Positions 22,808 through 42,813 of a stretch of DNA of 64,000 bases are shown in pieces. Each line of letters opens with the position of its first letter. Position 1 is the stretch's first letter. Location of the stretch: NCBI GenBank assembly GCA_027492035.1, contig JAOZFT010000032.1, forward strand, positions 7,170-71,169, in the 5' to 3' direction. The notes below the pieces were generated by a model, which saw only the letters and a list, made by a program, of their open reading frames with translations, did no database searches and had not been told where the DNA came from. The position numbers and the translations under genes were made by a program. Source of the stretch: Thermoproteota archaeon (GTDB taxonomy: Archaea; Korarchaeota; JAOZGF01; JAOZFZ01).

Positions 22808-22810
22808 TTC

Positions 22811-24046: not shown

Positions 24047-24199
24047 TTTTTAAATTTTCCCTTTAATTCCTCCCTGTTTTGTTGGAATAGAAAACTTTTT
24101 TAAGTGAAGGGAAGAGAATTTCTTTGTTCACTTATTTAACGCTCTGTTGTCACATTTTTTTCAATGAAGGTTTTTGGAGGCTTATAAAGGGTATAAATA

Positions 24200-25885
24200 A
24201 TGAATAGGAGCAATTTAGAAAAAATAAGTAAGGGCAAAAAGGAATGGGAGGAAAAACAATTGAAGAACCTTTTGAAGAAAGCACCTGAAAGAAAGAGTGT
24301 TTTCAAAAATTCCTCAGGAATAGAAGTGGGAAGGGTCTACACCCCCCTTGAGATCCAAGGTTTTGATTACTTAACCAAGTTAGGCTTCCCCGGCAGTTAC
24401 CCTTACACTAGAGGCCCCTATGCAACAATGTATAGAGGCAGGTTATGGACCATGAGGCAATACGCCGGCTTCGGAACAGCTGAAGAAACAAATAAACACT
24501 TCAAATACTTGCTGAGTCAGGGTCAGACAGGTTTAAGTGTAGCTTTCGACTTGCCTACACAGATAGGCTACGACTCTGATCACCCCTTAGCTAGAGGGGA
24601 AGTAGGGAGGGTGGGTGTAGCTGTTGATTCATTAAAAGACATGGAAATACTATTTCAGGGGATTCCTCTGGACAAAGTAAGCACCTCAATGACAATTAAT
24701 GCACCCGCCAATGTGTTATTGGCGATGTACTTAACCCTAGGGGAAATGCAAGGTATAAATAGATCTCTTTTAAGAGGAACTGTTCAGAACGACATATTGA
24801 AGGAATACATTGCTAGGGGAACCTACATCTTTCCTCCAACACCCTCACTGAAAATAGCTGTAGATGTTTTTGAATTTTGTTCGAAAGAAATGCCTAAATG
24901 GAACTTCATAAGCGTAAGTGGCTACCATATGAGAGAAGCTGGGGCTAATGCTGTTCAAGAATTAGCTTTCACTTTAGCTGATGGGTTAGCTTACATAAAT
25001 GCTGCTTTAGAAAGAGGTTTAAAAATTGATGACTTTGCTCCCAGGATCTCCTTCTTTTTCGCTTGCCACAATAACTTCTTCGAAGAAATAGCTAAGTTCA
25101 GGGCTGCAAGAAGGTTGTGGGCTGAAATTTTAAAGGAAAAGTATTCTCCAAAGAAAGAAAGATCCTTACTTATGAGGTTCCACACTCAAACCTCAGGTTG
25201 TACATTAACTGCTCAGCAGCCTATGAACAATATAATACGTGTAGCTTATCAAGCTTTGGCTGCTGTGCTTGGGGGTACTCAAAGTTTACACACTAACAGC
25301 ATGGATGAAGCCCTATGTTTACCCAGTAAACAATCAGTTAAGATTGCTTTAAGAACTCAACAAATCCTAGCTTATGAAACAGGCGTCTCTGACACTATAG
25401 ACCCCTTAGGTGGATCCTATTACCTTGAATGGTTAACTGATGAATTAGAAGAAAAAGCTAGGAAGTATATTGATGAAATAGAGGAAATGGGGGGAATGGC
25501 GAAAGCTATTGAGAAAGGATTTATCCAGAAGGAAATACTTGAAACAGCTTATCACTACCAGAAAGAAATAGAGAAAGGAGAAACTGTAGTTGTGGGAGTG
25601 AATAAATTCAAGGAAGAAAGGGAAGAAATAAAAATTGAAATTTTCAACGTTTCAAAACTTGAAGAAACAGCTAAAATGCAAATTAAAAAACTTCAAATAG
25701 TTAAAAGAGAAAGGAATAAGTCTAAGGTTGAAGAGGCATTGTGTAAACTAGGTAAAGCGGCTGAAAAGAATGAAAACCTTGTACCTCCAATAATTGAGGC
25801 AGTTAAAGCTTATGCCACTTTAGGAGAAATATGTGGTGTGTTAAGAAACATTTATGGGGAGTATAGAGCCCCAAATATTCTTTAA
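24200..25885 (+). CDS. Methylmalonyl-CoA mutase large (catalytic) subunit, paralog 2
   Basis: 561 aa, roughly 70% identical in protein to the ORF at 19725-21422, with several 40-60-nt stretches of perfect nucleotide identity. Confidence 0.9.
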
Positions 25886-25901
25886 AAAAGGGTGAAAGAT
25901 A

Positions 25902-26300
25902 ATGTTTAAGAAGATAGACCATATTGGAATAGCTGTCAAAGACCTTGAAGAAACCATGAAAAAATTTAAGGATGTTTACGGTTTAGAACTGCATAAAGTA
26001 AGGGAAGTGAAGGATCAAAAAGTGAAAATTGCAGTTTTTAAAATAGGTGAAACCAAAATAGAACTTCTTGAACCAACCGAAGAAGAAAGTGCAGTTGGAA
26101 GATTTATTCGAAAAAGAGGGGAAGGTTTCCATCACATAGCTTTTCAAGTTGAAGATTTAGGATCTACATTGGAAAAAATTGAGGGGGCAGGCATAAAAAC
26201 AGTGACTGATAAGCCGACTTTAGGCTACGAAAACCACAAAATCATTTTCTTGCATCCAAAAACAACTAACGGCGTATTAATAGAACTTGTGGAAAAGTAA
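25902..26300 (+). CDS. Methylmalonyl-CoA epimerase (glyoxalase/VOC family)
   Basis: 132 aa; N-terminal IDHIGIAV and a later HHIAFQV metal-binding motif typical of MCE. Confidence 0.8.
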   Translation: MFKKIDHIGIAVKDLEETMKKFKDVYGLELHKVREVKDQKVKIAVFKIGETKIELLEPTEEESAVGRFIRKRGEGFHHIAFQVEDLGSTLEKIEGAGIKTVTDKPTLGYENHKIIFLHPKTTNGVLIELVEK

Positions 26301-26440: not shown

Positions 26441-27715
26441 TTGGCTTCTTCAAGCATTAAGGAAGAGATAGAAAAGGCAAATCAGGAATCTGTTACAAGA
26501 ATGATGGAGTCAGATCCACTGTGGGTCGATATAGGATTTGCTAAGAAAGTAATTCCGGGAATGAAGGATTATAAACTGATACATGCAGGTCCCCCAATTG
26601 AATGGGAAAGAATGAGCGGACCCATGAGAGGGGCAATAATAGGTGCTATACTCTACGAAAAGTGGGCTGAAACACCTAAAGAAGCTGAGGAATTAGCTAA
26701 GTCAGGTAAAGTTAGTTTCGAACCTAACCATCACTATAACGCAGTAGGTCCCATGAGCGGGGTTATTTCCCCAACTATGCCAGCAATTGTTCTGAAAGAT
26801 AAAAAGTATGGGAACCAAACCTATTCTCTCCTTAATGAAGGAATAGGGAAAGTGCTCCGTTACGGCGGCTACGACAAGGAAGTAATAGATAGGTTAAACT
26901 GGATAAGAGACGTCTTAGGCCCAGTTTTAGAAGCTACAATAAAGGAAGTAAAGAAGGAGAAGGAAGGTGTAGCTTTAAAACCAATTATGTCGCAGGCTCT
27001 CCACATGGGTGACGAATGCCATAACAGACATGTAGCTGCTACTTCTCTCTTCCTGAGGGAAATAATTCCTTACATGATGCAGACAAGGTTAGACAAGAAA
27101 GACCTAATTGATGCATACAACTTCATGAACAAAAATAACTTCACTTTCCTAGGGTTCGCTATGGCTGCAGCTAAGGCAATGACTTTAGCAGCTCACAATA
27201 TTAAGTACAGTACAATAGTGACTGTCATGAGTAGGAACGGTACAGACATAGGTATTTGGGTTAGTGGTTTAGGTAATGAATGGTTCACTGCACCAGCTCC
27301 TGTACCTAAGGGTGTTTGGTTCCCAGGGTTCAGTGAGAAAGATGCTAACCCTGATCTAGGAGACAGCGCCATAATGGAAACAGCTGGTATAGGAGGATTT
27401 GCTATGGCGGCAGCACCCGCGATTGTAGCCTGGGTTGGAGGATCTGTTTCCTTCGCTGTTGAAAACACTAAAAAGATGCAAGAAATCTGTTACACCAAAC
27501 ATAAATACTTCACCATACCCTATCTTGAATTTGAAGGAACCCCTACAGGCGTAGATATAAGAAAGGTTGTGAAGACAGGGATAACTCCAACTATAAACAC
27601 AGGCATTGCTCACAAGGAAGCAGGAATAGGTCAAGTGGGGGCAGGAATTGTGAAATTCCCAATGAAGATGTTTAAAGATGCGTTAAAAGCCTTTGCAGAA
27701 AAATATGGGTTATAA
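26441..27715 (+). CDS. DUF1116-like protein (YlbE/AllG-like, putative oxamate carbamoyltransferase component)
   Basis: 424 aa, matching the size of E. coli YlbE. Assigned by gene context (FdrA-like, DUF2877-like and carbamate kinase neighbours); I could not confirm a family motif by eye. Confidence 0.4.
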   Translation: MASSSIKEEIEKANQESVTRMMESDPLWVDIGFAKKVIPGMKDYKLIHAGPPIEWERMSGPMRGAIIGAILYEKWAETPKEAEELAKSGKVSFEPNHHYNAVGPMSGVISPTMPAIVLKDKKYGNQTYSLLNEGIGKVLRYGGYDKEVIDRLNWIRDVLGPVLEATIKEVKKEKEGVALKPIMSQALHMGDECHNRHVAATSLFLREIIPYMMQTRLDKKDLIDAYNFMNKNNFTFLGFAMAAAKAMTLAAHNIKYSTIVTVMSRNGTDIGIWVSGLGNEWFTAPAPVPKGVWFPGFSEKDANPDLGDSAIMETAGIGGFAMAAAPAIVAWVGGSVSFAVENTKKMQEICYTKHKYFTIPYLEFEGTPTGVDIRKVVKTGITPTINTGIAHKEAGIGQVGAGIVKFPMKMFKDALKAFAEKYGL

Positions 27716-27766
27716 AACCCATCCCTTATTCTTTTTTGCCTACAAAAATATGCGAAAGACCGATTT

Positions 27767-28729
27767 TTGATGCATTTAGAAAGTATTGGCGAAATAGCTT
27801 TAAATGAAATAACCAAGTCAGAAGGGGAAAGTAAATTAGGGACAGTGTTGAACGTTTTCAAATCCACAGCCTACATAAAAACAATAAGTAATGAATTAAT
27901 TATATTAACCACCCTCCCCTTAAAATCCCCTATAACCATGAACTTAAACTATAGAGGTAACCTTAAATCTGTTTTAAAACCTTTAGCAAAAATTAAAGTA
28001 AGGGACGGTAAACTTCAAACAAATGGTTTCACAGCATCTTTAGTTGAAGCCAAAAAATATGTTGTTCAAAAACAATGCCTTAACGCTGATGTATTGTTTT
28101 CTATTCTGGAAAAAGATTTCCGAAACATCCTTTCTCTCTTAAACCTTGAACTTTATAATGCATCAATTACTTGGTTAAAAACTTATCAAGTAGTTACCGA
28201 AAAGTTTATGGAGTGTCTTAACGAAACTAAAAAATTGAAAAATAATTTACAGAACTCAATTTTAAATTTTTTAACTAAAATTATAGGGTTAGGGCCTGGT
28301 TTCACCCCTTCAGGGGATGACTTTGCGGCAGGTTTTCTTTTCATATTCAACACCTTTTCTCCCTTACTCAAACTTAAAAAAATAAAAATAAGCAATAGTA
28401 TCCTCTTCTCCCACACAAATTGGGTTAGTGGAAAAATAGTAGATTATATACAGCGAGGTATTGCTGATGAAGTGCTTTACAAGGTTCTTTGCTGCTTAAA
28501 GAACCTTCAAAGGAATTCTTTAACAGATTCCTTCCTAGACCTGATTTCAAGGGGTCATACCACCGGAGTAGATCTTGCGATGGGGTTTCTTGCAGCTATT
28601 TCCTTTCTACAAGATACTGCCTATAACTCAAGTTTAACTTCTAAACTGATCCTTTTCTTGCTTGAAAATACAAAGCAAGTTTTGTTTGTTGGGGGAGATG
28701 GGAACCTAAGGAAATTACCTAAGAACTAA
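27767..28729 (+). CDS. Hypothetical protein, possibly DUF2877 (YlbF/AllH-like)
   Basis: 320-aa soluble protein directly downstream of the DUF1116-like gene. Assignment is by size and context only. Confidence 0.3.
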   Translation: MMHLESIGEIALNEITKSEGESKLGTVLNVFKSTAYIKTISNELIILTTLPLKSPITMNLNYRGNLKSVLKPLAKIKVRDGKLQTNGFTASLVEAKKYVVQKQCLNADVLFSILEKDFRNILSLLNLELYNASITWLKTYQVVTEKFMECLNETKKLKNNLQNSILNFLTKIIGLGPGFTPSGDDFAAGFLFIFNTFSPLLKLKKIKISNSILFSHTNWVSGKIVDYIQRGIADEVLYKVLCCLKNLQRNSLTDSFLDLISRGHTTGVDLAMGFLAAISFLQDTAYNSSLTSKLILFLLENTKQVLFVGGDGNLRKLPKN

Positions 28730-28905
28730 AACATTTATCTTTTTTCAGGGAGGAAAAGTAAACATTTAAAAATGAAGCCTTTCCTGTGAAAGGGTATTAC
28801 CCATACTCCCCTACAATTCCTTTAATGAATGTCTCAGGGGGAAAACATGTTAAAGAACTGTTTTTCTTATTCTGAAAAGGGTGAAGTAATGCAGGTGAAA
28901 TTTAT

Positions 28906-31290
28906 TTGAGGCAGAAATATATAGGTAAAGCTTTACCTCAGCTTGATTCATTTCATAAAGTTACCGGTATAGCCAAATACACACACGACATCTCCCTTCC
29001 CGGTATGCTCCACGTTAAACTCGTAACTAGTACGGAGCCACATGCAGAAATAATCAACATTGATGCAAGTGAAGCTTTAAAAATTCCTGGAGTGGTGGCA
29101 GTTCTTACAGGGAAAGATTTTCCTTACAGGCTTGGGATTTATGTAGGAGATAGAGATGTTTTGGCAATTGACAAAGTTAACTGGGTAGGTCATCCTGTAG
29201 CCGCTGTAGTTGCCGAAACAATGGAGGCAGCTGAGAAAGCCATTGACTTGGTTGAAGTAGATTATAAGCCTTTGAAACCTGTCTTCGACCCCTTTGAAGC
29301 TTTAAAGGAAGAAGCGCCGATTATCCACCCAAAACTTGGTGAATATAGACGTGCACCTGCTTTTACGCCGGTTCCAGGAACAAATATAGCTAATAAATTC
29401 ACTTTAAGGAAGGGAGATGTGGAGAAAGGGTTTAAAGAAGCAGATGTGGTGGTTGAAAACAGATTTTACATGCCCTTCGTAAGTCACTGTTACATGGAGA
29501 CACAATCCGTGGTTGCACATTACCACAAAGACGGGACAATTGAAATATGGACGAGTGCACAGTCTCCATTCGCTGTAAGGAACCTAATGGGTTTGTCACT
29601 AGGTATCCCTATCGGTAAAATAATTATTTATCAGCCCTTTGTGGGAGGAGGTTTCGGAGGTAAAGCAGGGTTACATTGGGAACCATTGGCAGCCTTAATT
29701 TCTAAAAAGGTAGGTTACAAACCTGTTAAGCTTAAACTTTCAAGGAAGGAACAGTTTACTTCAGCACCTGTAAGGGAAGGGTTCCATGCAGAAGTTAAAG
29801 TAGGGGCTAAAAGAAACGGTAAATTAACAGCTTTAAAAGCAAAATTCATTCTTGACAGTGGAGCATTCGCAGATTACACAGTAAATGTTTCTAGAGCTGC
29901 AGGTTACTCTGTGGGGGAAGTATATGACATTCCTAATGTGTACTGTGACTCCTTAGCTGTTTACACAAACAAAGTACCTACTACAGCTATGAGAGGTTTT
30001 GGTCACCCGGAAAGTGCGTGGGCTGTTGAAAGATCCATTGAAATGTTAGCTAACGAATTAAAAATGGATCCCCTAAAACTAAGGTTAATGAATGTTGTTA
30101 AAGCAGGCATATCAACAACCGTAACAGGTGAAAGACTTAGGGAAGATGCAGGTAATCCAGTCCAGTGTTTGGAGGCTGTAGCTAAAGCAATTAACTGGGG
30201 TAAAACCGAAGAAAAACCCAAGGAACCTTGGAAATTTATAGGTAAAGGGTTAGCTGTTTTCTCCAAGGGTCCAGCTCAACCTCCTAATGCTGCTTCTGCA
30301 GCTATTATAAAAATAAATGAGGATGTAACTGTCGATTTAATGGTTGGGACTGGAAACTTCGGACAAGGCACCCTAACAAGTCTGGCGCAAATTGTCGCTG
30401 ATGAATTGGGGGTACCTGTAGAAAAAGTAAGAATAAGAACTATGCGTAGTACAGACACTGTAGCCTATACTTGGCAAACAGTAGGTAGTAGAGGCCTTTT
30501 CACTGATGGAAACGCTGTGCTTGAAGCACTAAAGGATGCTAAAAAACAAATAAAGGAAGTAGCTTCACAGGTCCTTAGAGTTAAGCCTGCAGATTTGGAA
30601 ATAAAAGACGGAAAAGTTATGGTAAAGGGCAGACCCTGGGAAAATGTCCCTTTGAGTGACATAGTCATGGGATATACTTACCCCAATGGCAACTCTATAG
30701 GAGGCCCAATAATAGGTAGAGGTAAATACATCTCCCCAATAAATACTTATTTAGATCCTGAAACAGGTCAAGGAATACCCACTATCTTCTACACCTTTGG
30801 TGCTGCTGCATGCAAAGTTGAAGTTGACGTCCTTACAGGTAAAGTGAAAGTGCTGGAAGCTGCCCAGGCTTTCGATCTAGGAAAAGCCATAAACCCATTA
30901 CTTGTCCGTCAACAAGTTGAAGGGGGCTTTATAATGGGTCTAAGTGTAGCGTTATTTGAAGAGATACAATTTGATGAAAGAGGGTGGGTTCTTAACCCTA
31001 ACTTCTCAACTTACTGGGTTGCCAGGGCTGCAGATATTCCTTCAAAAATAGACACTATACCAGTGGAGAATCCTCAGAAAGATGCACCTTACGGCGCAAG
31101 AGGGATAGGGGAAGTAGTAATGTTAGGTGTCCCCCCTACAATAGCCAACGCTGTACAGAATGCAATAGGGGTAAACATCAATAATTTGCCTTTAACGCCT
31201 GAAAACGTTTGGAAAGCTATAAAGAAGCAGAGGCCTGAATTGGTAGAAGAAATAAAGAAGAAATTGGTTTCATGGAAATGGAAAGTTTAG
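28906..31290 (+). CDS. Xanthine-dehydrogenase-family molybdopterin-binding large subunit
   Basis: 794 aa with a TTG start. Contains the MRGFGHPE (XDH-type RGFG) and QVEGGF (catalytic Glu) motifs. It lacks the VAYRCSFR loop of form I CODH. Confidence 0.85.
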   Translation: MRQKYIGKALPQLDSFHKVTGIAKYTHDISLPGMLHVKLVTSTEPHAEIINIDASEALKIPGVVAVLTGKDFPYRLGIYVGDRDVLAIDKVNWVGHPVAAVVAETMEAAEKAIDLVEVDYKPLKPVFDPFEALKEEAPIIHPKLGEYRRAPAFTPVPGTNIANKFTLRKGDVEKGFKEADVVVENRFYMPFVSHCYMETQSVVAHYHKDGTIEIWTSAQSPFAVRNLMGLSLGIPIGKIIIYQPFVGGGFGGKAGLHWEPLAALISKKVGYKPVKLKLSRKEQFTSAPVREGFHAEVKVGAKRNGKLTALKAKFILDSGAFADYTVNVSRAAGYSVGEVYDIPNVYCDSLAVYTNKVPTTAMRGFGHPESAWAVERSIEMLANELKMDPLKLRLMNVVKAGISTTVTGERLREDAGNPVQCLEAVAKAINWGKTEEKPKEPWKFIGKGLAVFSKGPAQPPNAASAAIIKINEDVTVDLMVGTGNFGQGTLTSLAQIVADELGVPVEKVRIRTMRSTDTVAYTWQTVGSRGLFTDGNAVLEALKDAKKQIKEVASQVLRVKPADLEIKDGKVMVKGRPWENVPLSDIVMGYTYPNGNSIGGPIIGRGKYISPINTYLDPETGQGIPTIFYTFGAAACKVEVDVLTGKVKVLEAAQAFDLGKAINPLLVRQQVEGGFIMGLSVALFEEIQFDERGWVLNPNFSTYWVARAADIPSKIDTIPVENPQKDAPYGARGIGEVVMLGVPPTIANAVQNAIGVNINNLPLTPENVWKAIKKQRPELVEEIKKKLVSWKWKV

Positions 31291-31302
31291 AGGTGAAGAA
31301 AA

Positions 31303-32184
31303 ATGTCTTTTGGTGCACCCTATATTTCAATACCTGAATTCCAGTATCTTAAACCTAAAACTTTGAAAGAAGCGCTTGAAACACTTTCAAAATATGAAGA
31401 TGAAGCTAAAGTGTTAGCTGGGGGTGTAGGCCTTTTAAATCTCATGAAAGAAAGACTAGTGGAGCCTGAATATGTAGTTGATATTAAAGGGATTCCTGAA
31501 CTTAGGAAGGTAACATATGAAGAGGGGAAAGGGTTGACTATAGGGGCAACAGTGACTTTAAGTGAACTGGAAAACAATGAAATAGTGGAGAGGAAGTACA
31601 CAGCCTTACATGAAGCAATAAAGGTTTTAAGTGACCCAGTTTTAAGAAATAGGTCAACATTGGTTGGAAATGTCTGTGAAGCCTTTGCTTGGATGGATAG
31701 TCTATCTCCTCTACTTGTTTTCGACGCTGAATTAAAAGCTTTAAGCGTAAACGGTGAAAGAATGATAAAAGCCAAAGATTTTATTATCGGCCTAGCTGAA
31801 ACAGCCTTGGAACCAAATGAACTGGTTGCATCCATTTTTCTGCCAGAACCACCTAAAAACTCGGCAAGTAAATTTATTAAATTCAGGTCCAGAAGCGAAT
31901 TCAGTGTGATCAACGTGGCTTCTCTCTTGGCAAACAGGGACAATCCTCCAGAAAGAATCTTGAGATTAGCTTATGGAGGAGCTACGCCTTCTCCCGTTAG
32001 GGTATTTGCAGTAGAAAAAGTTTTTAAGCAACAGAAACCCTTAAATGAATTACTTAAGGAAGCTTTAGATGTTGTTTTCAAAGAAGTTTCCCCAATGGAA
32101 GACATGCATGCTTCTAAGGAATACAGGGAACATTTAATGGAAACTTTAACCATTAAAATTATTAGGGAACTCTGGGGTGAATGA
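31303..32184 (+). CDS. Molybdenum hydroxylase FAD-binding medium subunit (CoxM/XdhB-like)
   Basis: 293 aa with a FAD-binding PCMH-type domain (AGGVGLLNLMKE) and a CO-DH flavoprotein C-terminal domain. It lies between the L and S subunit genes. Confidence 0.8.
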   Translation: MSFGAPYISIPEFQYLKPKTLKEALETLSKYEDEAKVLAGGVGLLNLMKERLVEPEYVVDIKGIPELRKVTYEEGKGLTIGATVTLSELENNEIVERKYTALHEAIKVLSDPVLRNRSTLVGNVCEAFAWMDSLSPLLVFDAELKALSVNGERMIKAKDFIIGLAETALEPNELVASIFLPEPPKNSASKFIKFRSRSEFSVINVASLLANRDNPPERILRLAYGGATPSPVRVFAVEKVFKQQKPLNELLKEALDVVFKEVSPMEDMHASKEYREHLMETLTIKIIRELWGE

Positions 32185-32657
32185 AAATGCCAAGAAAAAT
32201 CACCTTCACCGTGAATGGTGTGAAAAAACAGGTGGAGGTTAAGGATAATGAGTTGTTGGCTGATGTTTTAAGAGATAAGCTTCAACTTACAGGTGTAAAG
32301 CAGGCATGTTGGAGAGGGGAATGTGGACTTTGCACAGTACTCCTTAACGGTAAACCTGTTAAATCATGCCTTATCTTAGCTGTTGAAGCAAACGGGGCTG
32401 AAATAGTTACCAGTGAAGGATTAATGGAGGGTGACAAACTATCCCATCTACAAAAGTCATTTGTTGAAAACGGAGCTCTTCAATGTGGTTTCTGCACACC
32501 AGCTTTCACATTGGTAACTCATTATTTACTGACTCAAAAACCTGACGCGTCAGAAGAAGAAATAAGGGAATATATTAGTGGCTTAATTTGTAGGTGTGGA
32601 ACCTATAATGAAATAGTGAAAGCTGTGAAACAGGCTTCTCAATACTACAAAAAATAA
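32181..32657 (+). CDS. Molybdenum hydroxylase [2Fe-2S] small subunit (CoxS/XdhC-like)
   Basis: 158 aa; plant-type 2Fe-2S motif CWRGECGLCTV and a second cluster motif CGFCTP...CRCGTY. Confidence 0.9.
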   Translation: MKMPRKITFTVNGVKKQVEVKDNELLADVLRDKLQLTGVKQACWRGECGLCTVLLNGKPVKSCLILAVEANGAEIVTSEGLMEGDKLSHLQKSFVENGALQCGFCTPAFTLVTHYLLTQKPDASEEEIREYISGLICRCGTYNEIVKAVKQASQYYKK

Positions 32658-32689
32658 GGAAATGAATTTCTTTTCCTCTTTTTCTTTCT

Positions 32690-32875
32690 TTAAAGGATTT
32701 TTGAAAGGATGTCCTTGTATTCTTTTTCTAGTTTAGGGGGCGGCTGCCAAGTGACGTGTACAGCCTTTATTTCTTGGTCAAGCAAGGCATTATAAAATAT
32801 TTCTATGCCTATGTTTATTACTTTTAATTCAGATTTAAATAACTCCATCACTTTCTCACTCATTCCTTTTTTCAC
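32690..32875 (-). CDS. Small hypothetical protein (61 aa)
   Basis: Short ORF 2 nt downstream of the fdrA-like gene on the same strand. No recognisable motif, so it may be spurious. Confidence 0.2.
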   Translation of the reverse strand: MKKGMSEKVMELFKSELKVINIGIEIFYNALLDQEIKAVHVTWQPPPKLEKEYKDILSKIL

Positions 32876-32877
32876 CT

Positions 32878-34500
32878 CTATTGTGGAAACAGGAAAGATT
32901 CATATGTTCTTTCTAATGTATCCTCTTTCATTCTCCCCTTCGATGCCACTGCTGAAGCTAATATAGCCATTAAAGCATTAGTTGGAAGAACTGTAACACC
33001 TAAACTTTCCAGTTTCTTTGTTTGGAGCGAAAGGTTTTGGGGGTCTCTATCCGTCCCGCATACATGGGCTAAAATAGCTAAGTACCTTCCGTTTTTTTCA
33101 GCTGTTTCTTTTGCTTTCCTTATAGCTTCTGTATGGGCTTCAGCTGGGTCTGAATGTGAACCGTAACCTAGAACGAAATCAAGGAGTATAACAGCAACTT
33201 CTGGGTCCTTTGCCTCTTCTATCAACCTTAAATTCCTAATCGTCGGGTCAATCATCGGATGAGCTCTGCCTATGGTGAACTCTTCCTCCCCTAAATCAAC
33301 TACTGTGTGTTGAAAACTTTTGTAAGGGTTTTTTAATCCAAGCCTAGGTTCTAGGGGTGCATTGGAGTAAACGTCTCCCAAAGTTTCTTTTAAGATAATA
33401 AGTGACTCATACGTTAATGTTCCCCCTGTAAAAAGTCCCCTTATGTATTTCTGTTTTTCTTCAAATTGAGAATAAAGCTTTTCACTTTTCCTTAACAACT
33501 CCTCTGCAGGTATTGAAATCTTCTTTTCTGCCTCTTTGAAAAGTTTTTCGTCAAGGAGTCTTACCGACTCTAAAGCTGCTGCATGTAACGTTCTTGTTTG
33601 GACAAGTCTTTCCTTAAGTTGATTGGGTACTTCAAAAACTTTCCCGCCCATGAAACAGGTAACATATTTCTTTTTTGTGTTGTATGTTATATAATCAAGT
33701 ATTTTTTTCTGAACTTCGGGATCTGGTGGTTTAGCCACTAGAGTTACTACTTTTGTTTCGGTATCTTTCTCTAAAGCCTTTATTGACTCTAAAGCCATTA
33801 TTCCCCCCACTTTCTTTTTAACATCTCCTCCACCTATTCCTATTCCCTGTGAAACACCTGAACCGGCTACAGTTATTAAAACACTTACCTCCTGTAAACC
33901 TGTTCCAGCTGCTGCAACTATGCCTATTGGTCCCTTATTTACTACGTTAGCGAAAGCTATTGCTTTGTTATTTATTATTGAGGTGCCTGCAGCAGCCCCC
34001 ATTACAAGGAGACCCCTCTCCTTTGCGTATTCCTTTATTTCAAGTTCATCCTCAATGGGTACATGGTCACTGAATAAGTGCACGTGAATTCCTCTATCTA
34101 AAAGTTTCAGCGTTATTTCTTTAGCGTATTCCCCTGGGACGGAAACGATTGCTAAATTAGCATCAGGTAATGCCTCTAATGCAGTTTCTAAGCTGTAAAA
34201 GTATTGTCCAGCTTTTGGAGGCTTAGTTAGCATTTTTTCAATTGTTTCAACAGCCTTATTTATTATTTCTTCAGTTGATGCGGAAACAGCTATTACCATG
34301 TCGCTTTCTCCAGCTATTTTCCCTTCCTCAACCAATAAACCTAGTTTTTCCAGTATTTCCTTGTTTGTTTTTGTACCCATAACTACAGCTGCATCCATTA
34401 CTCCCTCTATTTTTTTAGCTTGTTCTGACAAATGGAGGAGCTGTAAAGAGTCCCTATAAAAATTCTTCTTCACCACATTTTTTACAGGCAAATTTATCAC
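32878..34500 (-). CDS. FdrA-like acyl-CoA synthetase-fold protein (AllF-like)
   Basis: 540 aa with a succinyl-CoA-synthetase-alpha-like CoA-binding/ligase architecture, as in E. coli FdrA. It neighbours carbamate kinase. Confidence 0.6.
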   Translation of the reverse strand: MINLPVKNVVKKNFYRDSLQLLHLSEQAKKIEGVMDAAVVMGTKTNKEILEKLGLLVEEGKIAGESDMVIAVSASTEEIINKAVETIEKMLTKPPKAGQYFYSLETALEALPDANLAIVSVPGEYAKEITLKLLDRGIHVHLFSDHVPIEDELEIKEYAKERGLLVMGAAAGTSIINNKAIAFANVVNKGPIGIVAAAGTGLQEVSVLITVAGSGVSQGIGIGGGDVKKKVGGIMALESIKALEKDTETKVVTLVAKPPDPEVQKKILDYITYNTKKKYVTCFMGGKVFEVPNQLKERLVQTRTLHAAALESVRLLDEKLFKEAEKKISIPAEELLRKSEKLYSQFEEKQKYIRGLFTGGTLTYESLIILKETLGDVYSNAPLEPRLGLKNPYKSFQHTVVDLGEEEFTIGRAHPMIDPTIRNLRLIEEAKDPEVAVILLDFVLGYGSHSDPAEAHTEAIRKAKETAEKNGRYLAILAHVCGTDRDPQNLSLQTKKLESLGVTVLPTNALMAILASAVASKGRMKEDTLERTYESFLFPQ

Positions 34501-34546
34501 CTAAATTTTTAATTCTATTTCTCCTTCTTTGTTTCCAAGAGTTTAC

Positions 34547-35506
34547 TCATTTATTTTTGTATATTAAGGTCCCTGTTTTTCCATCTAAAGCGTCAACCGC
34601 TTTATTTAACGAGGTAATTATCGCCTTTTTCCCCCCAAACTCCAGAAACCTTATGCAAGCCTTTACTTTCGGCCCCATACTTCCAGCCAAGAAATGGCCC
34701 TCCTCTAAATATTTTTTGGCTTCTTCAATAGACATTGTGTCAATGTCTTTCTCGTTTGGTTTTCCATAGTTCAATTTAGCTTTTTCTACATCCGTCAAGA
34801 TAAGGAAAATGTCGGGTTTCACCACTTCAGCTAGTCTCTCCCCTGCTAAATCTTTATCTATCACTGCTTCAACTCCCTTTAATGAGCCATCCTTCTGCGA
34901 AACAACAGGTATTCCTCCGCCTCCTGAGGCTATAACTATTACCCCTGCATTAACTAGCCTCTTTATTGCTTCCCCCTCTATTGGACGTATAGGGTCAGGT
35001 GAAGGAACAACTCTCCGGTACACTCGTTCACCAGCAGGTTTCACTTTTCTAATGAAGTAATTTCTTTCTTTCTTCAATTCTTCAGCCTCTTCTAAAGTGT
35101 AAAACGGTCCAACGGGTTTATGTGGATCTTGGAAATCCGGATCGTCCTCTCTAACCAACACTTGTGTCACAATAGTTGCTACAGGAATGTTTATACCCTC
35201 TCTTTGTAAATAGTTTATTAATGTCTGTTGTAACATGTAACCTATTTGTCCTTGTGTCATAGCACCTAAGACATCTAAGGGTTGTGCAGGAACTTTACTT
35301 ACTCCCTCTTCCTGTTGGATAAGTAAGTTACCCACCTGAGGACCGTTTCCATGAGTAATAACTAAACCGTAGCCTCTTTTCACTATTTCAAGCAAGTGTT
35401 TACATGTTTCTCTAACGTTTCTAAACTGTTCTTCAGCTGTTCCTTTTTCATCGGCTTGTTTTATTGCGTTTCCTCCCAATGCAATAAGAATAACTTCTTT
35501 TTTCAT
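34547..35506 (-). CDS. arcC: Carbamate kinase
   Basis: 319 aa, amino-acid-kinase family; N-terminal ILIALGGNAI and C-terminal GGGGIPV motifs typical of carbamate kinase. Confidence 0.85.
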   Translation of the reverse strand: MKKEVILIALGGNAIKQADEKGTAEEQFRNVRETCKHLLEIVKRGYGLVITHGNGPQVGNLLIQQEEGVSKVPAQPLDVLGAMTQGQIGYMLQQTLINYLQREGINIPVATIVTQVLVREDDPDFQDPHKPVGPFYTLEEAEELKKERNYFIRKVKPAGERVYRRVVPSPDPIRPIEGEAIKRLVNAGVIVIASGGGGIPVVSQKDGSLKGVEAVIDKDLAGERLAEVVKPDIFLILTDVEKAKLNYGKPNEKDIDTMSIEEAKKYLEEGHFLAGSMGPKVKACIRFLEFGGKKAIITSLNKAVDALDGKTGTLIYKNK

Positions 35507-35638
35507 GTTATCAACCTTTGCAAAAGCGTTTTATCCTTATTTAGAAAGGATGTGAAATAAAGAATAAGGGAAAGCAGTAGTGCTTTTAAAAAATTTTTGC
35601 TTAATTTACCATTTTTCCAGCGTAGAATGTAAAATTCT

Positions 35639-36430
35639 TTATTTTCTTTTAAGAACAATCCCCGCTGGATCTATTTCTTCCCTCAAAACTTTTAATTCCT
35701 TTTCAGTTGGAGAAGGAGTTTGAGGTATCTTTTCCGGGATTATCAGTTCAAAGCTTGTATTTTCAACCACTTCCTTAACAGTTACTCCCGGGTGTAGTGA
35801 AAGTAATTTCATCCTTTTAGTTTCTTCATCGAAACCCATAACCCCTAACTGTGTAATTACTCTGTAAGGACCTGTATCTTCCGGTAAACCAGCTTTTTCC
35901 CTTTCACCTGGCCCTGTTAAATAACCTGGCGTAGTTATGAAATCTACCTTCTTCACGAATCTTTTCTTGTCCTGCCTCATAATAATGATGGTTTTCCATG
36001 CAAGGGAGCCTGCGTCATTAGCCCCACCACTACCAGGCAACCTAACCTTTGGTTTATCAATATCCCCTATCACTGTTGTGTTTATGTTCCCATACATATC
36101 TATTTGAGCGGCACCCAGGAAACCATAGTCAGCGTAACCAGCTTGTAAAAAGGACATTACATAATTCATTGAAGTAGCCATCACTGCCTTGTAGAAAGTT
36201 CTGGAGTCACCAACTGAAATAGGCAGGGTGGGAAGCTGAGGCCCTACTCCTCCTGCTTCAAAAATAATTAAGAGATGGGGTGCATGGGTTTTTTGGGCAA
36301 GTGAAGCTGCTATTATAGGTAAACCAGTGCCCACTAAAACTGATCTGTTATCTTTAAGCATTTTAGAAGCTGCGCAAGCCATTAATTCAATAGTAGAAAA
36401 TCCTCCTTTATCCCTTTCCACAACTCTCAC
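35639..36430 (-). CDS. 3-oxoacid/glutaconate CoA-transferase subunit B
   Basis: 263 aa with family I CoA-transferase beta-subunit features (LPGSGGANDAGS); overlaps the subunit A gene by 4 nt. Confidence 0.75.
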   Translation of the reverse strand: MRVVERDKGGFSTIELMACAASKMLKDNRSVLVGTGLPIIAASLAQKTHAPHLLIIFEAGGVGPQLPTLPISVGDSRTFYKAVMATSMNYVMSFLQAGYADYGFLGAAQIDMYGNINTTVIGDIDKPKVRLPGSGGANDAGSLAWKTIIIMRQDKKRFVKKVDFITTPGYLTGPGEREKAGLPEDTGPYRVITQLGVMGFDEETKRMKLLSLHPGVTVKEVVENTSFELIIPEKIPQTPSPTEKELKVLREEIDPAGIVLKRK

Positions 36431-37440
36431 CTCTCCATCCAGGGAGCTTCCAACCTTACTTGAAGTTTCTCAAGTTTCTTCAAGTAGTTAAGCTTCTTCA
36501 CTCCCCCTACTAAGTTTAAATATTCCACGAAGTCTTTAACACCGTAAACGTATTTGTCTAAATATTGCTCAACCCCTTCATCTGTTTTAGAAAGTTTGAG
36601 CCATTCACCAATATGTTCCTCATCAAAATAGTAAAGATACGGCATGTGACAGGGGTGGCTGCCGTAAGGCACCTCCACAACAGCATCTACGAGGAAGAAA
36701 GGAATAACTGTTCTGTCAGGCCTCTTCCTAATTTCTTCTTCCTCAACTATCTCCTCAGTTGTAACAATTAACCTTCTAGCAGCCCTAGCTAATTCGAAAT
36801 CCATAACCAATATTCCGTCAATTTGGGAGTTTCCGTAAATATCACATCTGTGTACATGCAGTATTGCAACATCTGGATAGCATGCAGGAACAAGGCATAT
36901 TCTTTTCCCAGAGAAGGGGTCTTTCACAACCTTTGATGAACTTCTTTTAAAAGTGTCTGTTCCAAGCAAAACCCTTACAGGCATAAAAGGTAAACCTAAA
37001 GCCGCAGCTTCTAACCTCCATTGGAAAGCAGCGTTGCTCCATTCACTGGCTACTTTCACCTTGCCTTTTTCAACTGCTCTTCTTGAAGCTGGAGACAACC
37101 CCCTTAATTCATGTCCAAAACAGTAAGCAACCTCTACCTTGCTTGCACAACCCGAAGCCATGAGCAAATCTGTGTCATGAACCCCTGTTTTCCCTCCAAC
37201 AATCAAATCCTTCTTTTTCTGCCTAATTATTTCATAAACAGCAGCCATTGGAACTCTTACATGACCAAAGCCGCCGAAAGCAATGTAGCAGCCATTTTTG
37301 ACGTATCTTTTCACCGCTTCCCTTAGATCCATCCTTTTATCCTTTAATGTCCTAAACTTGTTCCTTTCCACCCATTTCCTATGCTCATCAGGATCATGCC
37401 AAGCTAGAAGTTCACCCTCACCTTCCTCGACCACTTCCAT
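36427..37440 (-). CDS. 3-oxoacid/glutaconate CoA-transferase subunit A
   Basis: 337 aa, GctA/AtoD-like, upstream partner of subunit B. Confidence 0.75.
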   Translation of the reverse strand: MEVVEEGEGELLAWHDPDEHRKWVERNKFRTLKDKRMDLREAVKRYVKNGCYIAFGGFGHVRVPMAAVYEIIRQKKKDLIVGGKTGVHDTDLLMASGCASKVEVAYCFGHELRGLSPASRRAVEKGKVKVASEWSNAAFQWRLEAAALGLPFMPVRVLLGTDTFKRSSSKVVKDPFSGKRICLVPACYPDVAILHVHRCDIYGNSQIDGILVMDFELARAARRLIVTTEEIVEEEEIRKRPDRTVIPFFLVDAVVEVPYGSHPCHMPYLYYFDEEHIGEWLKLSKTDEGVEQYLDKYVYGVKDFVEYLNLVGGVKKLNYLKKLEKLQVRLEAPWMER

Positions 37441-37723
37441 TCCTAAACCCCAGTAAAAGTTTTATCTTTATTTGAGGAAGGTAAGGTGTCCCCTCTAAAA
37501 TAAATATTTTACTACTTTCCTTTTGGTTCAATTGACGATTAAGCCTAACCTATTCAGTTGGAAGTAATTATTAAAAAAATAAGACTATTCTTTGAACTTT
37601 TCAGCTTTAAGGTTATGTGTAAATATTTAAAAGAAATTAAGTTAGGAAAAAGAGAATCTGTTTTTAAAACGTTAAAATAAACAAGGAATTAACCAGTAAA
37701 GATAGAAAGAAAAAGAAGGGGAA

Positions 37724-38458
37724 TTAAATTTCTACTTTTTCCGAAATTGTAAAGTTCTTGGCCTTTTTCAACATGTCTTCAGGGACAGGTCTCTCCCCTA
37801 TAAAGTAGGGGAACCTCTTTTTTATGAAACTGTCCCAGTCTTCTTTGGTTATATAAAAGACTCTTGCTCCTCCGAGTTCATGCTGATATTCAGGCCATGG
37901 CTTTTGTTTTTTACCCCATTTTAGTGCAAATACACGTATCCCTATGTAAGACTCGAAAGTCGCCCACCACTCCTTCACTCCAAGGTAGTCGAAAGCGTAT
38001 TCAACTTTTGCAGCATATAGTGACGGACCTAATCCTACTCCCCTTACAAATGACATTGTATGTAAACTATATGCTATGTCGTTGCTATATAACCTAGCAT
38101 TCACTATTCCTGCTAATTTCCCGTCTATTGTCCCCAATAGTAAGTAATGATCTTTTATTCTGTACCTGTACCATGCAAGGATCTCTGCGTAAGTTCTCAC
38201 TGCGACTATGTCGTAGAAATCTTTCTCTACATCGAAATAGGGCCTTATTGCCTTTAAAACTTTTGGTACATCTTCTCTAGTTGCTTGGTGGACAACCATT
38301 TTTGTTCCATCTCTCAAAGTAAGTACTTTCGGTGGGTAAGGAGTGTTTTGCAGTACTGGTGACTCCGGAGGCCTTAAGTTTGGTTCTAAATCCTCAACTT
38401 TAACAGTATATTCAGTTGCTGAAACAGGACAAGGCGGTTTTAAAGCCACGTTCATCAC
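37724..38458 (-). CDS. GNAT-family acetyltransferase (start uncertain)
   Basis: GNAT motif A FVRGVGLGPSLY (R-G-x-G-x-G). The longest ORF is 244 aa, and the true start is probably an internal Met (about 38299). Confidence 0.45.
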   Translation of the reverse strand: MMNVALKPPCPVSATEYTVKVEDLEPNLRPPESPVLQNTPYPPKVLTLRDGTKMVVHQATREDVPKVLKAIRPYFDVEKDFYDIVAVRTYAEILAWYRYRIKDHYLLLGTIDGKLAGIVNARLYSNDIAYSLHTMSFVRGVGLGPSLYAAKVEYAFDYLGVKEWWATFESYIGIRVFALKWGKKQKPWPEYQHELGGARVFYITKEDWDSFIKKRFPYFIGERPVPEDMLKKAKNFTISEKVEI

Positions 38459-38595
38459 TCTCCTTTTTATTTTATTTAAAAAGCTTAAAGCTTACTTTTC
38501 TAACCTATTAGGAAATAAGTATGCATAAGTTTGTGGGTTCAAATTTAAATATTTCTAATTTTTCATTTATCTTTCGATTCTTCCTTTATGTTTTT

Positions 38596-39072
38596 TTAAG
38601 TTGCTTCTAATGATTCCTTCACGCATTCAAACATTTTCTTAATCACTTTATCCATGGCTCCTTGGATCATTCCCTTTGCTAATCCCCCAAGTAAGCCACT
38701 TGTTTCTGCAGTTGCTTTCCAAGCAAAGGTTGTAGTGTTTGGTGATTCCTCCTCCAATTTTATCTCTACCTCTGAATTAAATGAACTGTTCACTCCTTTA
38801 CCTTTTAAAGCAAGTCTTGCGAAGTAGTCATCGGGTTTTTCCTCCAAAATTGCCACGTTTATATTGAAGGTTCCCTTAATAAACCCAACTCCAGCCTTGA
38901 CTTTAGCTGTGAAAGATCTTTCTCCTGTCTTTTCGTATTCTTTTAAGCCTGGAACACATTTAACTATTTCATCTGTATTGGAAACAAACTCCCAAACTTT
39001 GTTCCGAGGCGCATTTATTAAGAACTTACCTTCAAACTCCATACGAAAGTCACCCTCTACAGGAAAATTCAA
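38596..39072 (-). CDS. CoxG-like SRPBCC protein (molybdenum-hydroxylase accessory)
   Basis: 158 aa with the CoxG/polyketide-cyclase fold signature (NAPRNKVWEFVSNTDEIVKCVPGL). Confidence 0.7.
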   Translation of the reverse strand: MNFPVEGDFRMEFEGKFLINAPRNKVWEFVSNTDEIVKCVPGLKEYEKTGERSFTAKVKAGVGFIKGTFNINVAILEEKPDDYFARLALKGKGVNSSFNSEVEIKLEEESPNTTTFAWKATAETSGLLGGLAKGMIQGAMDKVIKKMFECVKESLEAT

Positions 39073-39474: not shown

Positions 39475-40617
39475 GTGATTGAGAATAAAATAAAGGTTGG
39501 ATCTGCAGTCTTTATCTTTGTATTGGCAATAGTTCTAGCTGGATGCGTTGGTCAACCACCATCTCCAACTCCTACACCTACACCAACAGCAACTCCTACA
39601 CCTACACCAACTGTTTCACCAACAGCAACTCCGACTCCTAAACATCCAGAAATAAAAATTGCTCTCATCTTACCGGGTTCAATAACTGACAGAGGATGGG
39701 ATCAAGATCCTTACGAGGGTTTCATGCAAGCTAAGAAAGATTTCGGAATTACTGCTGAATACACTGAAGGGACAGACATCACAGGTACCGCTGAAGACTA
39801 CCCAAGGATAATAAGAGATTATTGTAGAAGAGGGTTCCAATTAATCATTGCACATGGATTCCAGTACAGAGACGCTGTAAAAGAAGCTGCTAAGGATTAT
39901 CCGAATGTTTGGTTCACTTTCGATGGTTCAGCTGAAGACATAACTAGCAATACTGCTCCGTGGATATCCCTAGGCCATGAACCAGCTTATTTAGCGGGCA
40001 TATTAGCTGCAAAAATGACAAAATCAAAAATTGTAGGCGTCTATAATGGAATGCCTGTACCTATTGAAGTCCCATGCATGGAGGCTTTCAAGGCAGGTGT
40101 ACACTCAGTTGACCCTAATATAAAAATATTGTCAACTTACATAGGTGTTTGGCATGACGTACAGAAGGGGTATGACACTGCTTCCTCAATGATTGATGCA
40201 GGAGCGGATGTAATCTATGGTATCGGAGACGGAATCAATGTCGGAGGCCAGCAGGCATGTAAAGAGAAAGGAGTTTGGTTCATTGGAGGAACAGGTGGTA
40301 TACATCAAGTAGAAGGAGCCCCTGATATAACCTTGGCCTCTGTCTCATGGGGACTCGACAGAGTAATTTATCACTTAGTTAAGATCTTTGTTGAAAACGG
40401 TAAATTAGAACCTAAATTCTACCAATACTCAATGCACACTACTATAACCGAGAAAGGCAAACGCGTAGGACCATACTTTGTCTGGAACATGGATTTAGTA
40501 AATAAAGGAGTTATTCCCAAAGACGTCTACAACCTCATAGAATCAACTAAAGAAGATATAATGAAAGGATTAGTCCAAGTTCCACTTGTCTTCACAGCCC
40601 CTGAGGCGCAGGGCTAA
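39475..40617 (+). CDS. BMP-family (basic membrane protein/PnrA-like) ABC substrate-binding lipoprotein
   Basis: Signal peptide with a lipobox-like LAGC, a Thr/Pro-rich linker (PPSPTPTPTPTATPTPTPTVSPTATPTPK), and a BMP-family periplasmic binding fold. Confidence 0.8.
   Translation: MIENKIKVGSAVFIFVLAIVLAGCVGQPPSPTPTPTPTATPTPTPTVSPTATPTPKHPEIKIALILPGSITDRGWDQDPYEGFMQAKKDFGITAEYTEGTDITGTAEDYPRIIRDYCRRGFQLIIAHGFQYRDAVKEAAKDYPNVWFTFDGSAEDITSNTAPWISLGHEPAYLAGILAAKMTKSKIVGVYNGMPVPIEVPCMEAFKAGVHSVDPNIKILSTYIGVWHDVQKGYDTASSMIDAGADVIYGIGDGINVGGQQACKEKGVWFIGGTGGIHQVEGAPDITLASVSWGLDRVIYHLVKIFVENGKLEPKFYQYSMHTTITEKGKRVGPYFVWNMDLVNKGVIPKDVYNLIESTKEDIMKGLVQVPLVFTAPEAQG
39554..39654 (+). repeat. Thr/Pro-rich low-complexity linker repeat inside the BMP lipoprotein gene
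   Basis: Repeated ACNCCN codons (cctacaccaaca...) encoding a TPTPTP tether. Confidence 0.6.
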
Positions 40618-40672
40618 CCCCTTCCCCTTTTTTCTTTATTTTTTAAATATAACGCAATGGAGGTCTTTTGCT

Positions 40673-41731: not shown

Positions 41732-41732
41732 A

Positions 41733-42695: not shown

Positions 42696-42813
42696 GATCC
42701 TCAGAGAGGCGATATTGAAATGGTTCCTTTTTTCTTCGGTACCTTTATTAATTGGAAAAAGGTTAAGTGTATTTTTGGTTTTTCGAAAATTTCAATATGT
42801 AAAAAATTTTTTG

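Follow-up and report, generated by a model that had tools for sequence, protein, structure and literature searches.

A molybdenum hydroxylase, an AllFGH-like trio and a carbamate kinase in a Thermoproteota archaeon: one instance of a module conserved across archaea and bacteria, with pyrimidines as candidate substrates

The stretch analysed here, called the window in what follows, is 64,000 nucleotides long and comes from an uncultured Thermoproteota archaeon (GenBank assembly GCA_027492035.1, contig JAOZFT010000032.1, positions 7,170 to 71,169 of the forward strand). Between window positions 26441 and 39072 lie the genes for a three-subunit molybdenum (Mo) hydroxylase, for DUF1116, DUF2877 and FdrA-like proteins of the AllG, AllH and AllF families (the trio), and for a carbamate kinase, a two-subunit CoA-transferase, a GNAT-fold protein and a CoxG protein (Table 1). 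An earlier note, made without database searches, had read this region as a candidate module for the breakdown of purine-like heterocycles or ureides with a gain of ATP. All the genes that it named are present where it had placed them, and its family calls stand (map of open reading frames (ORFs), Pfam, NCBIfam). The cluster is one instance of a module that is conserved across archaea and bacteria and consists of the Mo hydroxylase, the AllFGH-like trio, the GNAT protein and a thiolase/DUF35 pair. Its variable parts are a CoA-transferase, an amidohydrolase of the cyclase type and an acyl-CoA decarboxylase that pumps Na+.

Families were assigned by Pfam and NCBIfam profile searches, with the NCBIfam scores set against the curated cut-offs. 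For the comparison with other genomes, one genome per GTDB species was scanned, which gave 577 relatives of the window AllG. The best 80 of these were analysed with 10-kb flanks, in which ORFs were called and clustered, and the cluster representatives were annotated. Labels such as L005, L009 or L088 denote related loci of this analysis; L081 is Moorella thermoacetica and L095 is Escherichia coli K-12. Genes of E. coli pathways were searched for by tblastn in the 64-kb window and in 85+ related loci.

In E. coli, AllFGH interconverts oxalurate plus phosphate and oxamate plus carbamoyl phosphate, with Mg2+ and without CoA, and this oxamate carbamoyltransferase is the only characterised trio (PMC11326118). 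The two ORFs of 424 and 320 amino acids upstream of the Mo genes had been proposed as the DUF1116 and DUF2877 counterparts, and the profile searches bear this out. They are joined by the FdrA-like subunit, kin of the succinyl-CoA-synthetase alpha subunit. As in clusters of the AllFGH type, the FdrA, DUF1116 and DUF2877 subunits are encoded together and next to a catabolic carbamate kinase, whose gene lies 46 bp from the FdrA-like gene. AllG and AllH share a transcription unit with the Mo genes; on the ORF map the intervals are 51, 176 and 12 bp, and one pair of genes overlaps by 4 bp.

Comparison of scores does not favour orthology to AllF, AllG and AllH over the paralogous YahF, YahG and YahE. 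The window AllG is 45% identical to E. coli YlbE/AllG and 44% to YahG (385 and 390 bits), the FdrA-like subunit is 41% identical to YahF (364 bits) against 35% to FdrA/AllF (283 bits), and the carbamate kinase has 46% identity to YqeA, 44% to YahI and 41% to YbcF/AllK. The window AllH is barely alignable, with 26% identity to YlbF over ~137 C-terminal residues and a weak match to YahE as well. Since the FdrA-like subunit is nearer to YahF and AllG is equidistant, the Pfam names stand for family membership and not for specificity towards oxalurate. The yah genes are a second set of E. coli K-12 (yahE-yahJ, L095:5926-12508), with DUF2877, FdrA-like and DUF1116 genes, a carbamate-kinase-like gene and an amidohydrolase; relatives of the module have a YahJ-like or CodA-like amidohydrolase too. 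Unlike the window, the yah cluster is without Mo hydroxylase, GNAT and CoA genes, and it gives no functional anchor. The nearest relatives of the window AllG (69-75% identity) come from metagenome-assembled genomes (MAGs) labelled Desulfurococcales or Nitrososphaeria, and the nearest named relative of the GNAT protein is from Geothermarchaeales.

The Mo hydroxylase has the architecture of the xanthine dehydrogenase (XDH) type, with the molybdenum cofactor (Moco), FAD and 2x[2Fe-2S] subunits on three consecutive genes (Pfam). The large subunit carries MRGFGHPE at residue 362 (nucleotide 29989) and QVEGGF at residue 670 (nucleotide 30913) and lacks the VAYRCSFR loop of CO dehydrogenase (CODH), as the note had reported; its description of the two motifs as XDH-type was too narrow, both being general to non-CODH members of the family. 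The aerobic CODH itself (CoxLMS) was considered and rejected, with AMRGFGHPE in the place of the loop and CODH models at 380 and 367 bits against cut-offs of 991 and 950. XdhA is the best NCBIfam match of the large subunit, with 522 bits where the cut-off is 780. Other XDH models also stay below their cut-offs (PRK09970 521/916, PucD 437/784, XdhB-type 346/850 bits), as does 4-hydroxybenzoyl-CoA reductase (493/995 bits). The models for glyceraldehyde/aldehyde oxidoreductase reach 450/790 (alpha), 191/350 (beta) and 189/290 bits (gamma), all short of their cut-offs, and to this extent the reading of the note is supported. In the PDB the best matches of the Mo subunit are 4-hydroxybenzoyl-CoA reductase, quinoline oxidoreductase and CoxL, and its distance to all solved relatives is much the same.

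Synteny gives a clearer picture of this enzyme. The identity of the Mo subunit to E. coli XdhA is 33%, and to those encoded beside AllFG in archaea, Moorella and Anaerospora it is 43-66%. A tree built from the Mo subunits of the loci puts it within an archaeal clade (51-66% identity), which is sister to the Moorella and Anaerospora subunits (44-46% identity), encoded directly beside AllF-AllG. The catalytic Glu (GARGIGE) and the Mo-proximal Gln (SAQSPF) are conserved in the clade. These two residues, the subunit architecture and the cofactor domains are shared with XdhABC of E. coli and PucCDE of B. subtilis, from which the window enzyme differs in that its large subunit scores under the equivalog cut-offs and belongs to a clade defined by AllFG synteny. 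In the alignment an Ala follows GGGFGGK throughout the clade, at what we take to be the position of the substrate-binding Glu of XDH (presumably that of bovine Glu802). For a Mo-dependent uracil/thymine dehydrogenase, the literature library that was searched gave no reference sequence or gene-level description. CoxG stands beside the Mo subunit also in L009, L088 and L086/L087.

Some of the related clusters have more than one enzyme of this kind. In Moorella a second Mo hydroxylase (L-M-S, L081:15266-20134) has the carbamate kinase on one side and, on the other, an NCS1 permease together with a cytosine-deaminase-like gene, and several archaeal clusters (L009, L025, L027) have two Mo large subunits each, which may mean two oxidation steps or two substrates. 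In Caldarchaeales (L023-L028, e.g. L025:3431-5746) a divergent Mo large subunit with VRGAGRP instead of RGFGxxE stands by the GNAT and Bmp genes, and these loci also carry a copy of the standard type.

The 80 related loci are 32 archaeal and 48 bacterial, and parts of the module occur in both. Near AllG are found AllF (63 of the 80), AllH (52), a PF04199 cyclase-type amidohydrolase (33), the Mo large subunit (31), carbamate kinase (27), the GNAT protein (20), an NCS2 nucleobase permease (16), a PF01039 carboxyltransferase (14, in several loci together with BCCP, OAD_beta and BioY), and a ThiS/MoaD-like protein and a PucR regulator (9 each). Two flavours can be told apart. In 45 loci the trio goes with a Mo enzyme, a cyclase or a GNAT protein, and the other 35 have mostly carbamate kinase alone, or an AtzD-family ring-opening amidohydrolase and an isochorismatase. 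The AllG tree places the window with the Mo/cyclase/GNAT flavour and not with the AtzD/AllK type. Mo enzyme, trio and GNAT protein recur in varied gene orders in Desulfurococcales, Nitrososphaeria, Caldarchaeales, Pyrodictiaceae, Anaerolineae, Firmicutes and Burkholderiales. The order GNAT-thiolase-DUF35 is found in Moorella and in four other bacterial loci (L051, L054, L062, L079). The window has its own counterparts of the thiolase, the DUF35 protein and the ThiS-like protein, outside the region that the note had covered, and the last of these probably serves Moco supply. The GNAT protein of the window shows the fold and the R/Q-x-x-G-x-G/A pyrophosphate-binding loop of GNAT acyl-CoA N-acyltransferases; its true start is probably a few codons downstream of the one in Table 1, as homologues have 241 amino acids. 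The cyclase-type protein was considered as a replacement for AllH and rejected, many loci having both.

The AtzD/TrzD-family class combines its amidohydrolase with AllF, AllG, AllH and carbamate kinase (L031, L032, L036, L049, L057 and L063; e.g. L049:12485-13594). Isochorismatase (BiuH-like), PucR and a XanQ/UacT-like permease are often added, and the hosts are Amphibacillus, Paraliobacillus, Carnobacterium, [Clostridium] ultunense and two archaeal MAGs. These clusters suggest that the trio also acts on acylureas derived from cyanurate, barbiturate or biuret.

Clues to the substrate come mainly from the relatives. In Moorella thermoacetica the order is AllF-AllG-cyclase-FAD-FeS-Mo, then a uracil permease, PucR, GNAT, thiolase and DUF35, and the cluster further contains a cytosine-deaminase-like amidohydrolase, an NCS1 permease, a second Mo enzyme and carbamate kinase. 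The uracil permease scores 650 bits with NF007995 (cut-off 477) and is 58% identical to E. coli UraA, and the CodA-like amidohydrolase reaches 430.5 bits, just below the cytosine-deaminase cut-off of 438. The Anaerospora permease has 70% identity to UraA. UraA-like carriers occur in three other bacterial loci of the Mo type, and XanQ/UacT-like ones in loci of the AtzD/kinase type. As further examples, L091 has the trio, the amidohydrolase, the cyclase and the GNAT protein together with a nucleoside phosphorylase and a DCD-family gene, and L088 has a gene weakly similar to 2-thiouracil desulfurase (TudS-like). A biotin-dependent acyl-CoA decarboxylase (BCCP, OAD_beta, BioY and a carboxyltransferase) lies inside several clusters (L009, L040, L090), which include archaeal and bacterial loci, and CoA-transferases recur, of family III in four bacterial loci and as a GctAB-like pair in the window. 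The decarboxylase and the CoA-transferases together point to a dicarboxylic acyl-CoA, for example malonyl- or methylmalonyl-CoA. The oxidative pyrimidine pathway turns C4-C5-C6 of uracil or thymine into malonate or methylmalonate; purine routes lead instead to glycine and formate, glyoxylate or oxamate.

The reading that we prefer, and for which we see about an even chance, is that the region may serve the breakdown of an N-heterocycle that contains a ureide, and most probably of a pyrimidine base of the uracil or thymine type. The substrate, the order of the steps and the roles of the accessory proteins are what we infer from gene content. The compound would be taken up as base or nucleoside by the Bmp-type ABC system, with a nucleoside hydrolase encoded elsewhere in the window. 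The three-subunit Mo hydroxylase, aided by CoxG, would oxidise the ring, with uracil to barbiturate as the model reaction, and ring opening would give an N-acylurea such as ureidomalonate or its CoA ester. The ring opener could be the cyclase- or AtzD-type hydrolase in the relatives; in the window the candidates are a metallo-beta-lactamase-fold hydrolase and the GNAT protein. The FdrA/DUF1116/DUF2877 enzyme would then use phosphate, not water, to split off the carbamoyl group as carbamoyl phosphate, which carbamate kinase would convert to ATP, NH3 and CO2. Oxalurate is the one-carbon-shorter homologue of ureidomalonate. The C3 or C4 remainder would be handled as the CoA ester of a dicarboxylic acid, in the window by the GNAT protein, the glutaconate-type CoA-transferase, thiolase/DUF35 and the epimerase/mutase, and in relatives the Na+-pumping biotin-dependent acyl-CoA decarboxylase would take the CoA ester. 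In many decarboxylase clusters without a CoA-transferase, the GNAT protein is the only CoA-binding candidate besides FdrA and the thiolase, and we speculate that it may therefore make the thioester from an activated amide.

A wider and more tentative proposal, possible but on balance improbable in our judgement, is that of an energy-conserving oxidative pyrimidine pathway, new to the literature and common to thermophilic archaea and anaerobic bacteria. The Mo enzyme would be the long-orphan uracil/thymine dehydrogenase, the GNAT protein would open the activated acylurea or imide or transfer it onto CoA, and the enzyme of the AllFGH/YahEFG family would phosphorolyse ureidomalonate or ureidomalonyl-CoA with one ATP gained via the kinase, leaving (methyl)malonyl-CoA for a Na+ pump or a mutase. 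If true, uracil would yield ATP, a thioester and an ion gradient and would not merely be hydrolysed to urea and malonate. Paralogues such as E. coli YahEFG would then gain a function, within a family of acylurea phosphorylases with several substrates.

Several observations weigh against the pyrimidine module as we prefer it. By tblastn with queries from the related loci, the window shows neither an AtzD/barbiturase nor a PF04199 cyclase nor a CodA-like amidohydrolase, and it is also without NCS2 permease and carboxyltransferase. The archaeal NCS2 permeases have ~25% identity to both uracil and xanthine/urate carriers and are thus uninformative, and PucR regulators and XdhA as best NCBIfam match would fit purines as well. 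Carbamate kinase is encoded within 10 kb in only 5 of the 45 loci of the Mo/cyclase/GNAT type. L090 and L091 have AllFGH, cyclase and GNAT protein with no Mo hydroxylase within 10 kb, and in L090 an AFOR-family enzyme takes the Mo position, which suggests that ring hydroxylation may not be the job of the Mo enzyme. The 80 loci were chosen by likeness to the window AllG, so their frequencies are similarity-biased and no unbiased census. As to the locus L090 itself, the AFOR-family tungsten gene overlaps the start of AllH (L090:11252-14129), and the cluster consists further of carboxyltransferase, BCCP, OAD_beta, GNAT, cyclase, CodA-like amidohydrolase, AllF and AllG.

On a model along the lines of the earlier note, the Mo enzyme would be a xanthine dehydrogenase, and a purine would be degraded over urate, allantoin and oxalurate to oxamate and carbamoyl phosphate, the latter for ATP. 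The logic by which a ureide gives carbamoyl phosphate and then ATP is well supported and is retained in our reading; the route from purine over allantoin and oxalurate is not supported, and we regard it as quite unlikely. It draws on the Pfam names AllG and AllH of the two ORFs, on the one characterised trio being that of E. coli, on XdhA as best match of the Mo subunit and on the PucR-type regulators of bacterial relatives. But no homologue of AllA-E, Gcl or GlxK was found by tblastn in the 64-kb window or the 85+ related loci, the XdhA score is far under its cut-off, Ala stands where XDH presumably has Glu, and the FdrA-like subunit is nearer to YahF than to AllF. In addition, the uracil permease, the cytosine-deaminase-like gene and the Na+-pumping decarboxylase of the syntenic clusters misfit oxamate as an end product. 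Of the set for reductive urate breakdown (YgeW/X/Y, HyuA, SsnA, YgfK, XdhD), a pathway described in PMC12507026, only carbamate kinase had matches in the window and the related loci. The scanned ORFs of the window contain no XdhC, uricase, allantoinase or barbiturase. Nor do they contain an arginine deiminase or ornithine carbamoyltransferase (PF02274, PF00185 or PF02729; a few short ORFs were left out of the scan), which speaks against the arginine deiminase pathway that the note had considered for the kinase. It is also conceivable, but unlikely, that the ring is opened without prior hydroxylation (for example to 3-ureidoacrylate), that the trio then releases carbamoyl phosphate, and that the Mo or tungsten enzyme oxidises malonic semialdehyde to malonate, for activation by the CoA-transferase and decarboxylation. 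The tungsten enzyme beside AllH in L090 would make sense on such a scheme, and so would L091, with trio, amidohydrolase, cyclase, nucleoside phosphorylase and GNAT protein but no Mo enzyme within 10 kb; the archaeal glyceraldehyde dehydrogenase score of 450 bits is not far under that of XdhA, Ala and not Glu follows GGGFGGK, and the CoA-transferase and the decarboxylase fit a malonate intermediate. However, we know of no direct hydrolytic opening of aromatic uracil, and minimal archaeal clusters (L088, L013/L014/L016) have Mo enzyme and trio with no hydrolase for an unactivated ring. The AFOR replacement is a single case, in a family whose members include ring reductases, and the glyceraldehyde dehydrogenase score misses its cut-off of 790 bits.

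Another possibility, to which we give little probability, is that trio and kinase serve nitrogen scavenging from small acylureas, linear or triazine (biuret, triuret, allophanate or cyanurate-derived), imported by the Bmp system, with the Mo and CoA genes belonging to something separate. Such a role has been proposed for nitrifier MAGs, and in those of ammonia-oxidising archaea and comammox bacteria allFGHK occurs with biuH and bmpA-nupABC (PMC12625717); the second class of AllG loci carries AtzD-family amidohydrolase, isochorismatase and AllK. The window, however, is without AtzD, isochorismatase/BiuH and allophanate hydrolase, its AllG belongs in the tree with loci of the Mo/cyclase/GNAT type, and its Mo genes share the transcription unit of AllG and AllH. 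That Mo enzyme, trio with kinase, and CoA genes are neighbours by chance and serve unrelated pathways is very improbable. In favour of chance, none of the 80 related loci has a homologue of the glutaconate-type CoA-transferase, Thermoproteota commonly carry mutase and epimerase genes on other grounds, and one GNAT homologue (L092) lies away from a trio; against this, Mo enzyme, trio and GNAT protein recur in different orders across archaeal and bacterial groups.

Parts of the module resemble known systems. AllFGH/AllK of E. coli has the same three families and a carbamate kinase, and the expected chemistry is alike, phosphorolysis of an N-acylurea to carbamoyl phosphate and from there to ATP. 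In contrast to that system, the window has no genes from allantoin to oxalurate, its host is an archaeon, and its trio is coupled to Mo hydroxylase, GNAT protein, CoxG, CoA-transferase and thiolase/DUF35. In the classical oxidative pyrimidine pathway of Rhodococcus and Corynebacterium, uracil/thymine dehydrogenase (a hydroxylation of the Mo/FAD/Fe-S type), barbiturase and ureidomalonase lead over ureidomalonate to malonate, which fits the pyrimidine transport and deaminase genes of the module and its malonyl-type CoA chemistry. The barbiturase of that pathway is of the AtzD family, and ureidomalonate is hydrolysed to urea and malonate with no gain of energy. In the window there is no AtzD-family enzyme and no ureidomalonase of the amidase-signature type, and trio and kinase would replace the hydrolysis. 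The note had known of no archaeal pathway of this kind. This has to be narrowed, since allFGHK was reported in 2025 beside bmpA-nupABC in ammonia-oxidising and other Nitrososphaerales MAGs, was read as oxalurate use with no upstream genes found, and involved no Mo hydroxylase (PMC12625717). Those clusters share with the window the AllFGH-family genes, carbamate kinase and a Bmp-type ABC transporter; they have biuret/triuret hydrolases and no upstream oxidising enzyme, where the window has Mo hydroxylase, CoxG, GNAT protein and CoA-ester enzymes (PMC12625717).

The enzyme families and the carbamoyl-phosphate logic are known, and the conserved combination is undescribed; the same probably holds for the substrate. 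For pyrimidines, an overview from 2025 lists the oxidative, reductive, Rut and URC routes only (PMC12507026). A full-text search of the literature library used here found nothing that links the trio with a Mo hydroxylase, this GNAT protein or pyrimidines, and a paper on the cyanuric acid hydrolase of Moorella offered no genome context. To our knowledge, none of the four pyrimidine routes conserves energy via carbamoyl phosphate. It was reportedly 2024 before a reaction was assigned to the FdrA/DUF1116/DUF2877 enzyme, and that reaction concerns oxalurate in E. coli alone. That the trio is locked to a distinct Mo clade, a dedicated GNAT protein, thiolase/DUF35 and decarboxylases in hot-spring archaea, Anaerolineae and acetogens points to a widespread fermentation or respiration of nucleobases, with a candidate gene for uracil dehydrogenase, and suggests that trio enzymes form a family of acylurea phosphorylases for a number of substrates. 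This could be tested in the cultured hosts Moorella thermoacetica and Anaerospora hongkongensis, and it bears on the recycling of nucleic acids in anoxic and geothermal ecosystems.

Table 1. Genes of the module and its surroundings, in order of position in the window
Feature	Position	Strand	Matches
DUF35 OB/zinc-ribbon protein	22457-22807	-	Pfam; 42% identity to Pelolinea L062 copy
Thiolase-like protein	22811-24046	-	Pfam; 57% identity to Pelolinea L062 copy
Methylmalonyl-CoA mutase large subunit	24200-25885	+	PF01642
Methylmalonyl-CoA epimerase-like glyoxalase-fold protein, immediately upstream of AllG	25902-26300	+	PF13669
DUF1116/AllG-family subunit	26441-27715	+	PF06545 E 1.9e-88; PDB 3CLQ E 2e-125
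DUF2877/AllH-family subunit	27767-28729	+	PF11392 E 4.6e-18, 66 bits vs cut-off 25, residues 172-277
Mo hydroxylase large (Moco-binding) subunit	28906-31290	+	PF01315, PF02738, PF20256
Mo hydroxylase FAD-binding medium subunit	31303-32184	+	PF00941, PF03450
Mo hydroxylase 2x[2Fe-2S] small subunit	32181-32657	+	PF01799, PF00111
FdrA/YahF-family subunit	32878-34500	-	NF004760 447 bits vs cut-off 433; PDB 3DMY (E. coli FdrA) E 3e-74
Carbamate kinase	34547-35506	-	TIGR00746 419 bits vs cut-off 358
Family-I CoA-transferase beta subunit, glutaconate-CoA-transferase type	35639-36430	-	PF01144; PDB 1POI_B (GctB) E 1.5e-56
Family-I CoA-transferase alpha subunit, glutaconate-CoA-transferase type	36427-37440	-	PF01144; PDB 1POI_A (GctA) E 1.1e-45
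Divergent GNAT-fold protein, conserved module partner	37724-38458	-	
CoxG/SRPBCC accessory protein of Mo hydroxylases	38596-39072	-	PF06240 E 9e-27
Bmp/PnrA-type ABC importer	39475-44418	+	PF02608, PF02653 x2, PF00005 x2
Importer, binding protein	39475-40617	+	
Importer, permeases	40586-41731, 41733-42695	+	
Importer, double ATPase	42685-44418	+	
Metallo-beta-lactamase-fold hydrolase	46318-47244	+	PF00753; syntenic in related MAG L087
ThiS/MoaD-like small protein	47310-47609	-	52% identity to ThiS-family ORFs beside Mo subunit/AllF in 9 loci

Some of the neighbouring genes may belong to the module. The Bmp/PnrA-type importer is transcribed divergently from the CoxG operon, and a transporter of this type adjoins the module also in L021, L023, L025-L028, L038, L080 and L086-L088. 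The metallo-beta-lactamase-fold hydrolase might, speculatively, be the ring-opening or amide hydrolase of this lineage, which has no cyclase-type enzyme. The mutase and epimerase genes are a possible downstream route for the carbon; in the closest locus (L005) a mutase and a carboxyltransferase adjoin AllK. More generally, the region 18300-26300 holds two mutase large-subunit paralogues (19725-21422 and 24200-25885), and with them a B12-binding small subunit, MeaB, an ATP:cob(I)alamin adenosyltransferase and the epimerase-like gene are packed directly upstream of AllG.

Searches of the window for tRNA genes and Rfam families gave no matches. An ECF-type transporter operon (13711-18019) encodes, besides an unassigned protein of 201 amino acids, two ABC ATPases and a CbiQ-like T component. 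Embedded between T component and ATPases is the gene of a nucleoside hydrolase of the inosine/uridine type (15276-16295), whose best matches are RihC, UriH and RihA, all below cut-off. Just downstream of the ATPase gene of the Bmp-type importer, orf566 (44541-46241, 566 amino acids) has no Pfam match; the one domain that it carries is CFI-box-CTERM (NF041770). None of the 80 loci has a counterpart, but in the related MAGs L086 and L087 one of 530 amino acids lies between the permease and ATPase genes. The remaining features are ordinary archaeal housekeeping: a complex-I-like nuo set on the minus strand, a PKD-domain surface protein of 1061 amino acids and a HerA/NurA pair (878-9280 and 52100-59748).

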